DNA of 64,000 nucleotides from a virus (lineage: Duplodnaviria; Caudoviricetes). How positions within the stretch are numbered: position 1 is the stretch's first letter; every line of letters begins with the position of its first letter. The DNA is taken from positions 160,001 to 224,000 of the IMG/VR virus record IMGVR_UViG_3300037312_000330, one strand, 5' to 3'. This document shows positions 1-26,385 of this stretch, one piece after another. The position numbers and the translations under genes were made by a program. The notes under the pieces are model-generated. The model did not search any database and had not been told where the DNA came from. It was given only the letters and a program-made list of their open reading frames with translations.

Positions 1-1
1 G

Positions 2-595
2 ATCACGAAATATGACTTCGTGTCCACGCTCTTCGAGGGCAATCCGTTCATCAAGAAGTTGATGGAACCTGTCCCAGAGAACTACCGCTTCAACTATTAC
101 TATCTGGATGAGATCATCCTGTGGACACCGTATCGTGGTTCCGGTATTGGCGGAGTCGCACTGCAGAAATGGTTCTCCACGTTGAAGGCGCCTGCAGTCG
201 TTGCGCTGTCACCAGCCAGAATCGGTAATGTTCCGTATACAGCTTTGCTCCGTTTCTACAAACGGAACGGGATGAGACTGTTCAAATTTCAAGGTGATTA
301 CATGGCAATCACATTTATCAAACACCCAGACATGGCATCGTTCGTGGGTGACGAAGAAGCGGATACAGCCAACAATGGTGGGACACCGTTCTTCGACGAC
401 AAATCAGCAGCCGATCGCTACAACCTGAACAAGACCAATGTGACAGCGGATAAAGATTTTCGATCCACAAACCACAGTGTACAGCCGGGATCGGTTCGCT
501 ATCTGACATTTAAAGATTTGCGTGCCCACGCAGTCTCAGCAAATATCCGACGCATGGGACGCGTTCTTTCCTTCATAAAGGGTCAGAAGGAATGA
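2..595 (+). CDS. 5'-truncated protein with GNAT-like acetyltransferase region plus ASFVGDEEADT linker
   Basis: Frame is open from base 2 (ITKYDFVSTL...). YRGSGIG resembles the GNAT acetyl-CoA motif A and LLRFYKRNG resembles motif B. Confidence 0.55.
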   Translation: MTKYDFVSTLFEGNPFIKKLMEPVPENYRFNYYYLDEIILWTPYRGSGIGGVALQKWFSTLKAPAVVALSPARIGNVPYTALLRFYKRNGMRLFKFQGDYMAITFIKHPDMASFVGDEEADTANNGGTPFFDDKSAADRYNLNKTNVTADKDFRSTNHSVQPGSVRYLTFKDLRAHAVSANIRRMGRVLSFIKGQKE

Positions 596-615
596 TTAGT
601 TTGATTCCATATATT

Positions 616-633
616 GGCCCACACAGTTGGGCC
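616..633 (+). promoter_or_regulatory. GC-rich hairpin just upstream of the RBS of 649
   Basis: GGCCCA-cacagt-TGGGCC, followed by GAGGA RBS; no U-tract. Confidence 0.35.
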
Positions 634-648
634 TGTTGAGGATAATCT

Positions 649-1896
649 ATGGCAATCAAACGATTGTTTGGTGTTACAGAGATCGCGAGCACGCAGTTCC
701 GGTCTCTTTCTGATGCGGAACGGCACCTGAAGAAAATTCAGGAAGAGATCAAGGATGCCGCCGCGATGTTGCGTAACTATGAAGCTCAATTCGCACGCGT
801 GGAGCGCCATCCTGTCATGGCAGCCGATCTCACATTCATTATCAATAGCGGTGACGACAACAAAAAGAAGAGTGGAAAGATCGTCAGCGACCGCATCGAC
901 AAGATTGTAATTCCAAAGCTCGATACTCTTAAGAAGAACTTCGACGTAGTGGATGCCATTTCCGAGAAGATAAAAGAACTCGAGGGAATGGAAGCGAATG
1001 TTGCTGTCAACATGAAGGGAATGCGTGGTCAACCAGAACTGCTGAAAGCCATCAAGAGCACAAAGGCAGCGGCTGACGCGCAAATGAAAGCGGCGCTTGA
1101 ATATCTTGAAACGGTGGGACAGAAGTATGCCCCAACTCCGTTCAAGGAATTCCTTAAGGCCGTAAGCGCCAAACTAAACCAAGATCTCGAGTTCGACAAG
1201 TCGATCATCAGTGTGTACGCGTGGACAGCTCCTACAGAGGAGAACACGTTCACGGTGTATATCCATCTGAAAAACTTCAAAGACGACAACGGCGACATCT
1301 ATCCAGACTTCTACATTGTCTTCACTTGTGTTCTGGCTCCGATCAGCGGAGACAAGCATCAACTGAGCATCGAATACTATGTGACAGTGATGCACGATTT
1401 TGAATCTCCTGGCAAGTTCCACCAAGGACGTCGTGTCTACAACGTCAAAGAGGCGATGGTCGAAATCGGTCACCTGCTGTCCATGGAGAACATCAGTCAC
1501 TCGATCGGTACGCTGCCACACGGTCTGTATCGTCGTGATGAAGAGTTCAAGAACGCGATGAAACAGGGTGCCGGAGCCCGTGTCGACAAGGTGGAGATCG
1601 ATCCATCGTCGTTGACATTCTGGTTCTTCAAGAACGTAAAGCAAGCGGAAGCGCAGAAGCTGATGTCTAGTATGTACGTGGACGTCAAGGCTCTAATGTC
1701 GCATATCCGTGGTGCCAGTCTGAAGATGCGGCAGGTGGAAGAAGACGGCAGACTTGGTGTCAAGTTCAGCCTAATCAATCTGGCTAAGGAAGGTCAGTTG
1801 AATGTCCAAGATCTGGATTGGCTGAAGAGCACATTCAGCCTGCGTGACGATCAAGTACGTGACATCGTTAAGGTCATCAACAAATCGTCGAGGTAA
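649..1896 (+). CDS. hypothetical protein, probably virion-associated
   Basis: 415-aa ORF with RBS GAGGA and coiled-coil-like N-half; lies in the structural region. Confidence 0.6.
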   Translation: MAIKRLFGVTEIASTQFRSLSDAERHLKKIQEEIKDAAAMLRNYEAQFARVERHPVMAADLTFIINSGDDNKKKSGKIVSDRIDKIVIPKLDTLKKNFDVVDAISEKIKELEGMEANVAVNMKGMRGQPELLKAIKSTKAAADAQMKAALEYLETVGQKYAPTPFKEFLKAVSAKLNQDLEFDKSIISVYAWTAPTEENTFTVYIHLKNFKDDNGDIYPDFYIVFTCVLAPISGDKHQLSIEYYVTVMHDFESPGKFHQGRRVYNVKEAMVEIGHLLSMENISHSIGTLPHGLYRRDEEFKNAMKQGAGARVDKVEIDPSSLTFWFFKNVKQAEAQKLMSSMYVDVKALMSHIRGASLKMRQVEEDGRLGVKFSLINLAKEGQLNVQDLDWLKSTFSLRDDQVRDIVKVINKSSR

Positions 1897-1899
1897 GAT

Positions 1900-2145
1900 A
1901 TGCCCATCAAACATCGAGTGCAGGCTTTCGCGCCAAGTCCCGGATACGGTGGCGGTGGCGGAGAACCTTTCCACAAAGGACAGAAGGCTCGTGTACCTGA
2001 CATCGGAAAACTGAAGGGCGACACAGTAACAGTGGACTCCGAGTTGCAACCACCGGACAGACAGAACCCAGACGGTTGGTATTGGGTGAAGTTCAAGAAG
2101 GGTGGTCGTGTTAAGATGAAGGCGGGCGATCTGCGTCCGATCTAA
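1900..2145 (+). CDS. small SH3/KOW-like beta protein with N-terminal MPIKHRVQA signal
   Basis: FHKGQKARV...GDTVTV...WYWVKF pattern; shared N-terminal motif. Confidence 0.6.
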   Translation: MPIKHRVQAFAPSPGYGGGGGEPFHKGQKARVPDIGKLKGDTVTVDSELQPPDRQNPDGWYWVKFKKGGRVKMKAGDLRPI

Positions 2146-2146
2146 C

Positions 2147-2920
2147 ATGCCGATCCTACAACGAATACTGGCGGGCAAGTACACTTCAGACCGACTAACT
2201 CGCCAGGAAGCGAAAGACCTGATAGTCTCGCTACGCCCTTTGATACGCAAGCACTGTCAGCAGTTCGAGATCGCTGGCTCCTTCCGTCGTGGAAACACTG
2301 ACATTGGCGATCTTGACTTCGTTGTAGTCAACGCTGATACCGCTGGTCTGCTGCAAGCTCTAGTCCAATACAAGAACGCTGAGAAGGCACCCCGAGCTGG
2401 CAAGGACGTGATGACCGTCATCGTCCCATTTGGCAAGAAGAAGATTCAGGTAGAGTTTGTGAACGTGCTACCACGCGCAGTGGGCAGTGGTCTGTTGCAC
2501 AGTACCGGAAGCGGCGAGTTCAACGTTGGCCTGCGTTCGTTCGCCAAGTCTAAAGGAATGCTGCTCAATCAGCATGGTCTGTTCCGTGCAGACAATGAGC
2601 GCTTCCTTGCTGGTCGTACTGAAGAAGATGTGTTTGACAAACTGGGATTCGCGTTCATCCCGCCGAAGCAACGCAACCTCAGTTTTCTGACTCTCAAGGG
2701 CAAGTACCTTGTCGATCCGTACAAGAACAACTTCTTACTCAAGGAACCGAAAGGCGAAGGTAAGAAGTGGAAGGTCAAGTCGAAGTCTGATCCAACCAAG
2801 TTCTACTTTGTGACCTTGACTCCCAATGGTAAATGGAAGTGCACGTGTCCACAGTTCGTGTACCGCAAGCAAGAGTGTAAGCACATCCAATTCATTAAGG
2901 ACAAGAAGGGGTTGTCATGA
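2147..2920 (+). CDS. polX: minimal family X DNA polymerase fused to a C-terminal SWIM zinc finger
   Basis: IAGSFRRG..DIGDLD catalytic motif, HSTGSGEFN, AKSKGMLLNQHGLF; SWIM WKCTCPQFVYRKQECKH; no lyase or PHP domain. Confidence 0.9.
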   Translation: MPILQRILAGKYTSDRLTRQEAKDLIVSLRPLIRKHCQQFEIAGSFRRGNTDIGDLDFVVVNADTAGLLQALVQYKNAEKAPRAGKDVMTVIVPFGKKKIQVEFVNVLPRAVGSGLLHSTGSGEFNVGLRSFAKSKGMLLNQHGLFRADNERFLAGRTEEDVFDKLGFAFIPPKQRNLSFLTLKGKYLVDPYKNNFLLKEPKGEGKKWKVKSKSDPTKFYFVTLTPNGKWKCTCPQFVYRKQECKHIQFIKDKKGLS

Positions 2921-3123
2921 CCATCAGAGCAATAGCCCGACTGAAAGAGCTGGCTGCCGAGATTAAGCCCGAGAACAGAGGCAAATTGCACCGCCGGTTG
3001 GGGATCCCGGAAGATCAAGAGATACCAATGTCTCGCTTGCGTTCGGAACTCAAGAAGGCTAAGGACAGCGGTGACACAGAACTCGAGAAGATGGTGAACT
3101 TCGCTATCAATTTCAAGCACTAA
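2917..3123 (+). CDS. small basic phage protein (GxLHxxLGxP type)
   Basis: 68 aa; GKLHRRLGIPEDQEIP; ATGA overlap with polX. Confidence 0.65.
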   Translation: MTIRAIARLKELAAEIKPENRGKLHRRLGIPEDQEIPMSRLRSELKKAKDSGDTELEKMVNFAINFKH

Positions 3124-3125
3124 AC

Positions 3126-3710
3126 ATGCCGCATCCATATCTATACAAGCTGGCCCACAAGCATGGCATCTCAGTGGATGAAGCTGAGAAGCGGTGGAAT
3201 AAGGCGAAGTCCAGAGCCAAAGACGAAGGTAAGGACAAGGACTGGGTTTACATTACTGGAATCTTCAAGCGCAGTATGGGCGAGGGTGCCTCGTTCGTTG
3301 GTGATGAAGAGGCCGACACATACGATCCAGTGCTTCCTCCTGGAATGCAGCCTAACGCTTCCGTAGCCAGATTGCGTGAAGTCGCCGCGATGGCCAATCA
3401 GGCGCAGGCTAAACGATTCCTGCAGGGGATTGGGCTCCAACCTACTTCTGTAGGAATGGTTGAAGAGAACTACATCAGCTACAAGATCAAGGATCCTGGT
3501 GAGAGCAAGACGGTCAACATCATCACGCAGGCGCTCGGCGTGGCGGGTGTAAAGCAAGCGAAAGATTACGGTCCTGTAGTCAATCGCGTTACCAAGACGA
3601 TCCAATGGATCTGGCGTGTGCCGAGCCGTGGGGTCATCAAGTACTTCCCTTCTACACACAAAGTCGCGTTCATGAATCAGGAACTTGACGACAAAGGAGA
3701 GACCGTATGA
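3126..3710 (+). CDS. two-domain hypothetical protein, probable head cargo
   Basis: N-domain EAEKRWNKAK...WVYITGIFKR (ChaB-like helical), then ASFVGDEEADT linker and VARLREVAA motif. Confidence 0.65.
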   Translation: MPHPYLYKLAHKHGISVDEAEKRWNKAKSRAKDEGKDKDWVYITGIFKRSMGEGASFVGDEEADTYDPVLPPGMQPNASVARLREVAAMANQAQAKRFLQGIGLQPTSVGMVEENYISYKIKDPGESKTVNIITQALGVAGVKQAKDYGPVVNRVTKTIQWIWRVPSRGVIKYFPSTHKVAFMNQELDDKGETV

Positions 3711-7332: not shown

Positions 7333-7788
7333 ATGTCCGACCCCACGGGGATTCTCAGCGTTTCCGTTGAGGGATCCCCGTCCAATGAGGACCCTGCTGA
7401 TGATGGTGCTTCACTAGAGGCAATTATCCAGGCGTACCTCGACGTAAATCCCACCCCAAGTGACGAACAGATTCACCATCTCGCAGCAATGCTCGGAATG
7501 ACACCCGAGTCGTTCGAGGAGGTAATCTACAAGATGTTCGGTCAATACGTGTCTGACGACATGCCAGCTATCAATGATGCGCTGACAGGTCTGAGTATGC
7601 GTGACGCACCGGAGGATCCGATTGAGGAACTGCTAGTCAAGTTCTTCGTCGCGCATCCGGAACCGTCTGACGAACAGATCCACCACCTAGCTGCGCTTAT
7701 CGGGTTTACGCCCGAGACGCTTGAGGAGCGTTTGTATTCCATGCTGTCTGATCTGGAATCAATCGATCCTACCAACCCATCCATCTGA
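7333..7788 (+). CDS. acidic protein with two tandem helical (homeodomain/HTH-like) repeats
   Basis: PSDEQIHHLAA.(L/I)G.TPE..EE..Y.M occurs twice. Confidence 0.7.
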   Translation: MSDPTGILSVSVEGSPSNEDPADDGASLEAIIQAYLDVNPTPSDEQIHHLAAMLGMTPESFEEVIYKMFGQYVSDDMPAINDALTGLSMRDAPEDPIEELLVKFFVAHPEPSDEQIHHLAALIGFTPETLEERLYSMLSDLESIDPTNPSI

Positions 7789-25881: not shown

Positions 25882-26385
25882 ATGGCGAAAATGGACAAAG
25901 CAGTTGCGAAGCGCTTCGAAGAACTCGAAGAGAAGCTGGAAGACCTGAAGAAGGCTTACCAGAAGCTCGCGAAGGGTGGCGCGGCTGCCAAGGGTGGCAA
26001 GGGCAAAGCCAAGGACGAAGATGATGACTCGGACGATGATGACGAGGACTTCGATCTCGACGATGAAGACGAGGTGAAGCCGGCCAAGGGCAAGAAGGGT
26101 GGCAAGGCTGCTGCCAAGAAGACTGCCAAGAAGGGTGGAAAGAAGTCCAAGGACGAGGACGAAGACGAAGATGACGACGCCGATGAAGACGGCGACGACG
26201 ATTCGGACGACGAAGACGACGAGGACGAGAAGCCTTCCAAGAAGGGCGCCAAGGGCAAGAAGGGCGCTGCCAAGAAAGCCGGTAAGAAGGGTGGCAAGAA
26301 GTCCAAGGATGAAGACGAGGACGACGATGACGAGGACGACGAAGACGGCGACGATGATGACGACTTCGAAGATGACGACGAATGA
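25882..26385 (+). CDS. low-complexity Lys/Asp/Glu block protein with short N-terminal coiled coil
   Basis: KKGGKKSKDEDED repeated twice; RBS GGAG; strong codon bias. Confidence 0.75.
   Translation: MAKMDKAVAKRFEELEEKLEDLKKAYQKLAKGGAAAKGGKGKAKDEDDDSDDDDEDFDLDDEDEVKPAKGKKGGKAAAKKTAKKGGKKSKDEDEDEDDDADEDGDDDSDDEDDEDEKPSKKGAKGKKGAAKKAGKKGGKKSKDEDEDDDDEDDEDGDDDDDFEDDDE

Follow-up and report, generated by a model that had tools for sequence, protein, structure and literature searches.

An identical eleven-residue peptide in the disordered linkers of two unrelated composite proteins of a phiRSL1-like jumbo phage, and its possible role as a docking motif

Why would two otherwise unrelated proteins of one phage share an eleven-residue peptide that is the same in every amino acid and different in six of its eleven codons? 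This question is raised by a stretch of 64,000 nucleotides of viral DNA (the window), bases 160001-224000 of IMG/VR record IMGVR_UViG_3300037312_000330, where the peptide ASFVGDEEADT occurs in two genes of the + strand, encoding protein A (P0001, 241 amino acids (aa); genome 159870-160595, window -130 to 595) and protein B (P0002, 194 aa; window 3126-3710). The viral contig is 248,884 bp long and has a G+C content of 51%. A connector, a portal and a large terminase are recognisable in it, and the only cultured phage that it matches at the DNA level is Ralstonia phage phiRSL1, over a short part of the head-tail connector gene. The source is an uncultured, phiRSL1-like jumbo phage of about 249 kb from a soil lineage. 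Scans of IMG/VR with protein B, its 415-aa neighbour and the connector identified just one related contig, and neither protein A nor protein B received a PHROG or Pfam assignment.

Copy A of the peptide lies at 335-367 (+ strand, residues 156-166 of protein A), with an in-frame ATG directly upstream at 332-334, and copy B lies at 3288-3320 (+ strand, residues 55-65 of protein B). The DNA of the two copies, GCATCGTTCGTGGGTGACGAAGAAGCGGATACA and GCCTCGTTCGTTGGTGATGAAGAGGCCGACACA respectively, differs at 6 of 33 bases, with all six differences at third codon positions and all synonymous. The initial annotation had reported both the identical 11-mers at these positions and the six silent third-position differences, and translation of the two genes confirmed this. 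The changed synonymous sites comprise 3 of 6 four-fold and 3 of 5 two-fold sites, i.e., 6 of 11 overall, which is near saturation, and 0 of 11 residues have changed. When neutral substitution was simulated, six random changes left the peptide intact in only 4e-5 to 1.5e-4 of trials. In addition, in 60 within-protein shuffles of the predicted proteome of 305 proteins, the longest peptide common to two proteins was 7-9 residues, against the 11 observed. Because a silent-only pattern has a probability of about 1e-4 under neutrality, and because the match is longer than any in the shuffled proteomes, the peptide is under protein-level constraint over all 11 residues.

A six-frame regex scan of all 248,884 bp identified exactly two copies of the peptide, and six-frame scanning of the whole genome for looser variants found none in real genes. 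Outside the peptide, proteins A and B have no homology detectable with BLASTP, which aligns the peptide region only, or with hhalign, which returns a probability of 0.4%, so the description of the two flanks as unrelated in the initial annotation stands. A phmmer search of every module against the six-frame genome returned self-matches only, i.e., no module has a paralogue within the genome, and with the A-B similarity confined to the peptide, duplication of a whole gene or domain is excluded. Every other long exact repeat at the peptide level belongs to paralogues, to internal repeats or duplications, or to low-complexity tracts. For example, PSDEQIHHLAA is present twice (7456-7488 and 7663-7695, with 8 nucleotide differences) within a longer repeated unit of a 151-aa gene at 7333-7788. 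A lysine/acid-rich peptide, KKTAKKGGKKSKDEDED, is encoded by identical DNA in two genes 62 kb apart (the gene at 25882-26385 of the window, and genome 124025-124081), and is repeated inside the window gene (26116-26166 and 26284-26328), where the second copy has 4 differences.

Protein A consists, in order, of a GNAT module, the residues HPDM, the peptide, and a 75-residue tail. The GNAT-fold acetyltransferase module (residues 1-151; window 1-322, + strand, with the gene start 130 nucleotides upstream of the window) contains a coenzyme A-loop-like motif, RGSGIGG, and is modelled as a GNAT fold by AlphaFold2. Its best PDB matches are Naa60, Naa50 and NatC, and these are weak (E ~5e-4, template modelling (TM) score 0.3-0.45) and identify a generic GNAT fold only. 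The only sequence homologues of the module are P0010, P0011 and the copy in the relative G001, all of which end in ...TFIK(A/S)(K), directly before the position of the peptide; scanning IMG/VR and metagenomes with the GNAT module identified no related contig. The tail module (residues 167-241 plus the stop codon; 368-595, + strand) is predicted to be disordered except for a C-terminal helix, and the AlphaFold2 predicted local distance difference test (pLDDT) score is <50 over residues 156-241, a region that includes the peptide. An exhaustive HMMER search of 1.84 billion representatives gave one real relative of the tail, P0014, a free-standing, homologous protein of 95 aa (E 4.9e-6), with an alignment that starts at ANNGGTPFF, at the residue after the peptide, and reaches the C-terminus. 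P0014 has MTSKRKRKRAN in the place of the M-ASFVGDEEADT of protein A. The GNAT gene of G001 ends at a stop codon of its own and is followed by a separate small open reading frame (ORF), which has only the island ANIRRLGRIL in common with the tail.

Since the GNAT homologues stop before the peptide, the tail is free-standing in P0014, and the two genes are separate in G001, protein A is a lineage-specific, in-frame fusion of a GNAT gene with the small gene that follows it, which encodes a disordered protein. In protein A, the peptide is the N-terminal segment of this fused small gene, and no Shine-Dalgarno sequence precedes the ATG at 332. The tail family retains short conserved islands (ANNGGTPFF, SVRYLT and IRR[LM]GRV) and looks like disordered protein, the usual setting of linear motifs. 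The island (A/S)(N/Q)(I/S)IRR[LM]GR[VI][LI] is C-terminal in the tail of protein A (524-592) and in P0014 (residues 79-95), and the same IRR[LM]GR island is N-terminal in the small ORF behind the GNAT gene of G001 (L006:1892-1945); the small-protein family seems, from these sequences, to be built from shuffled short islands.

Protein B is also divided by the peptide. Its N-module (residues 1-53; 3126-3284, + strand) consists of three helices and is a mobile helical domain of jumbo phages: in Vibrio phage phiKT1024 it stands by itself (73 aa), and in Achromobacter phage Motura it is joined to a NUDIX domain. The Motura gene with the NUDIX fusion is annotated as an adenine glycosylase (N-module homologues at L003:3001-3165 and L004:2501-2719), and its linker starts G-A-S-A-F-S-D, which bears a faint likeness to the G-A-S-F-V-G-D of protein B. 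The disordered linker of protein B (residues 54-87; 3285-3386, + strand; pLDDT <50) contains the peptide, then the island YDPVLPPGMQPN, which is also present in P0003 and P0004, and then the start of the C-module at the tag-like segment ARLREVAA. This C-module, a conserved alpha/beta domain, runs from residue 81 to the stop codon (3366-3710, + strand), and four homologues, P0006-P0009, consist of the C-module alone, starting just before the ARL motif. Foldseek and VIA-align (best Z 6.4, within noise) found no clear PDB fold for protein B, and its BFVD matches are uncharacterised phage proteins only, including those of Motura and phiRSL1.

Among homologues with both modules fused, the linker of protein B is hypervariable: L002 has an unrelated linker of 50 residues, and P0005 a short one. 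P0003, which at 64% identity is the closest homologue, shows an 8-residue gap at EGASFVGD and retains QKADAYDPVLP, and the linker of P0004 reads EG-EEADAYDPVLP. Because P0003 and P0004 both hold this latter part without ASFVGD, EEAD(A/T)-YDPVLP is ancestral in the protein-B linker of this sub-lineage, with ASFVGD a later insertion. Both carriers are therefore composite, built of modules that relatives encode separately, and the position at a domain boundary that had been proposed for both copies holds in both proteins, as defined by the ends of homologues and by the segments with pLDDT <50.

We tentatively favour a reading of ASFVGDEEADT as a lineage-specific short linear motif for docking, i.e., binding, to one common partner, and we hold it with a little less than even confidence. 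Under this docking reading, the peptide would bind a folded phage or host protein, bringing both carriers to the same place or complex, and purifying selection would hold the peptide identical because a single partner reads both copies. The locus has the traits of short linear motifs in that pLDDT is <50 at both copies, and an island conserved at 11 of 11 residues, with six silent changes, lies between flanks that cannot be aligned. From these observations we infer the existence of a common partner, and binding rather than cleavage.

Several observations weigh against the docking reading. Only two copies are present, so that the constraint rests on a single comparison. The peptide is present in 0 of 7 protein-B homologues (P0003-P0009), and is also absent from the IMG/VR relative (L002), the three GNAT homologues (P0010, P0011 and that of G001) and the tail homologue (P0014); the initial annotation had named a lack of conservation in orthologues as the finding that would speak against its proposal, and this lack is largely what we observe. 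Parts of the peptide alone are seen in two proteins, as EEADA in P0004 and KADA in P0003. The gap in P0003 falls at the peptide in spite of the 64% identity, and the linkers of L002 and P0005 are quite different. No confident intramolecular contact of the peptide was predicted by AlphaFold2. Finally, a search with the back-translated 11-mer drew a blank in IMG/VR, in the JGI metagenomes and in 185,579 species genomes, and the peptide is specific to this lineage.

Relaxed scans with 8-9-mers returned 8 matches, all of which we judged to be spurious. The match at L014 has 10 of 11 residues and is antisense to a DNA ligase gene; those at L013, L007 and L012 are in long open frames that are doubtful as proteins; that at L011 is in an open frame of 18 codons; and that at L009 is at the end of an open frame of 857 codons. 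The remaining two, L008 and L010, are Gfo/Idh/MocA oxidoreductases of Acidobacteriota; the whole family has the C-terminal consensus E-x-F-[VI]-x-D-x-EAN, of which SFVGDEEAD is one variant.

The initial annotation had left open whether the peptide is a docking motif or a protease site; the constraint, the true module boundaries and the exclusion of whole-gene duplication support that general idea, and the orthologues and the search for a prohead protease do not. A protease site, where a host protease or a maturation protease of the phage would cut the fused precursors within the peptide (e.g., after V-G-D-E) and free the modules, as in a polyprotein strategy on a small scale, is in our view rather unlikely but still attractive. 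The peptide does lie exactly at the seams of modules that are stand-alone genes elsewhere, in segments predicted to be exposed and disordered, and ARLREVAA, which is N-terminal in the homologues that consist of the C-module alone, is 15 residues downstream in protein B, so that a cut would bring it near the N-terminus. The phiKZ protease gp175 follows the cleavage rule S/A/G-X-E. A cut at V-G-D-E|E would have Val, a small residue and Glu at P4, P3 and P1, respectively, which resembles the rule of SPN3US gp245, a protease that cuts after A-X-E, prefers Val at P4 and has a specificity of 4-5 residues (PMC10052503). However, a pattern with a small or aliphatic residue at P3 and Glu at P1 (A/S/G-X-E or L/I-X-E), which V-G-D-E|E fits, is too short to discriminate, and the carriers are putative at best as head proteins. 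The genome yielded no S77, S78, ClpP or S49 protease: the models PF03420, PF04586, PF00574 and PF01343 gave no prohead-protease candidate at E up to 1, although a divergent protease could escape this search. A maturation protease normally has many substrates and a motif of 3-5 residues, whereas here 11 frozen residues occur twice, and any processing of the fused orthologues P0003, P0005 and L002 cannot depend on the peptide, which is missing from all three. We prefer docking to cleavage because 11 frozen residues exceed the 4-5 residue specificity of such a protease and fit an extended binding interface, and because there are two sites only, no detected protease, and fused orthologues without the peptide. 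A broader variant, in which the 11-mer is a portable junction cassette spread by short-patch recombination, with neighbouring genes fused and their products separated or co-delivered through one dedicated protease or receptor, is quite improbable. The related suggestion in the initial annotation that these are processed polyproteins gains some indirect support, since the modules flanking the peptide are separate in relatives.

It is unlikely that the peptide is a functionless relic, i.e., that a short patch was copied ectopically, or by gene conversion, into two tolerant disordered linkers, with the silent-only pattern due to luck or to a weak general constraint. Such an origin fits the absence of the peptide from all orthologues and the presence of only two copies, as well as the hypervariability of the linkers, which differ freely in length and sequence among relatives, and the EEADT half, which was already in the protein-B linker (EEADA in P0004, KADA in P0003). 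It is difficult to reconcile with an all-silent probability of about 1e-4, and with synonymous sites near saturation beside 0 of 11 residues changed and dissimilar flanks, as a neutral relic of this age should decay like its flanks. Very improbable is a role as substrate or regulatory peptide of the GNAT module, where an Ala-Ser-Phe N-terminus, exposed by Met removal at an internal start (ATG 332) or by cleavage, would be acetylated in both proteins. Met can be removed when Ala is at position 2 (cf. PMC10052503), copy A comes straight after an ATG, and the structural matches of the module include Naa60, Naa50 and NatC, but these matches, as described above, are weak and identify the generic fold only, ATG 332 lacks a Shine-Dalgarno sequence, and copy B is internal with no start codon directly before it. 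We give equally little credence to the peptide being a structural element that was captured from the beta-hairpin and helix at the C-terminus of bacterial Gfo/Idh/MocA proteins or is homologous to them. In the two Acidobacteriota oxidoreductases SFVGDEEAD follows (D/N)P and lies 5 residues after RMGRVLEF or QLGRSLEF, and protein A has HPDM-ASFVGDEEAD and, at its C-terminus, RRMGRVLSF. The order of the two elements is nevertheless reversed in protein A, the second match (RMGRVLEF) is not significant (BLAST E 0.24 in a tiny search space), the Pfam model PF19051 misses proteins A and B even at E 10, and the family is so large, with 9 paralogues in one genome, that exact 9-mers are expected by chance.

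Short linear motifs with which unrelated phage proteins dock to one partner are known, such as the acidic, aromatic C-termini of T7 gp2.5 or SSB, and the tails by which T4 gp43, gp33 and gp55 bind the clamp. ASFVGDEEADT resembles these tails in that about 10 disordered residues, acidic and with one aromatic, are present on unrelated carriers in one genome and are constrained at the protein level only. Unlike these tails, the peptide is internal, has two carriers, is absent in related phages and matches none of those motifs. A comparison with the prohead-protease sites and propeptides of giant phages (SPN3US gp245, phiKZ gp175) and with the sites of T4 gp21 is also mixed. V-G-D-E followed by E fits P4, P3 and P1, and the peptide is exposed and upstream of an autonomous module; in the giant-phage and T4 prohead systems, head proteins lose N-terminal parts of 20-250 residues. 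In contrast to such sites, there is here no detected protease of the gp21 or gp175 type, 11 frozen residues rather than 3-5, two sites only, fused orthologues without the site, and carriers that are not known to be head proteins. The T4-type capsid targeting sequence is at the extreme N-terminus, unlike the copies at ORF residues 156-166 and 55-65. RNA-virus polyproteins likewise have the same junction peptide between functional units in one ORF, but in this dsDNA phage there are two junctions only, the units are separate genes in relatives, and cleavage is hypothetical.

How the two copies arose can be proposed from the linkers. The full 33-nucleotide unit most likely formed in the protein-B linker after the insertion of ASFVGD, because EEAD(A/T) predates ASFVGD there. 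From there, a short patch would have been copied into the small gene that follows the GNAT gene, where it displaced the basic N-terminus at the 5′ end, and this small gene with its copied patch would subsequently have been fused in frame to GNAT. The reverse direction, from A to B and primed on EEADT microhomology, is conceivable. The 2.9 kb between the copies encode a 415-aa protein, an 81-aa protein, a PolX-SWIM protein and a 68-aa protein, and G001 keeps homologues of the 415-aa, PolX and 68-aa proteins in the same order. A recoded duplicate borne on a cassette, as with a homing endonuclease, is rejected because G001 retains most of the intervening genes in the same order and no endonuclease is encoded among them; in addition, the copies are in different genes.

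The surroundings of the two genes show further features. Many neighbouring genes begin with a start peptide of the form M-[PAST]-I-x-x-[RK]-[IV]-x-A, for example MPIKHRVQA, MPITHRIQA, MAITHRIVA and MSINKKVEA. A regex census identified 8 clear examples, clustered at genome 159.8-169.9 kb and at 207 kb; start peptides of this form lie at window positions 1900, 2147, 2917, 6157, 8669, 9207 and 9648 on the + strand and 48075 on the - strand. The start peptide is also present at the start of protein A (L001:4870) and in L002 and L006, and genes of the relative G001 begin likewise; the ARLREVAA at the start of the C-module of protein B resembles it. Upstream of the GNAT gene, about 575 nucleotides (L001:4296-4870; genome 159296-159870) with one low-scoring ORF only separate it from a 420-aa gene, the counterparts of both genes abutting directly in G001, and this stretch may represent a non-coding element or the remains of a gene. 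Downstream, the sequence after protein A (598-625) and that after the small ORF of G001 (L006:2150-2175) have TTTGATTCCATA(T/C)A in common despite diverged coding DNA around them, and this conserved intergenic sequence may be a phage promoter or other regulatory signal. Between its small ORF and a 435-aa gene, G001 also has a 193-aa ORF (L006:2249-2830) that contains GDGAFGTV...VAVKV, a glycine loop like that of protein kinases; this phage has no gene at that position.

For annotation, the domain boundaries of both carriers are now defined, as each is a gene fusion whose modules relatives encode separately. Confinement of the peptide to one uncultured genome limits the wider value. Should the junction-cassette reading be true, it would mean polyprotein-like expression in a dsDNA phage, outside the classical substrates of head maturation. 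If instead ASFVGDEEADT is a true recognition motif, it would provide a small, testable handle on two proteins in a poorly known, phiRSL1-like soil jumbo lineage, and the case would show that disordered phage linkers can gain common address or processing signals.

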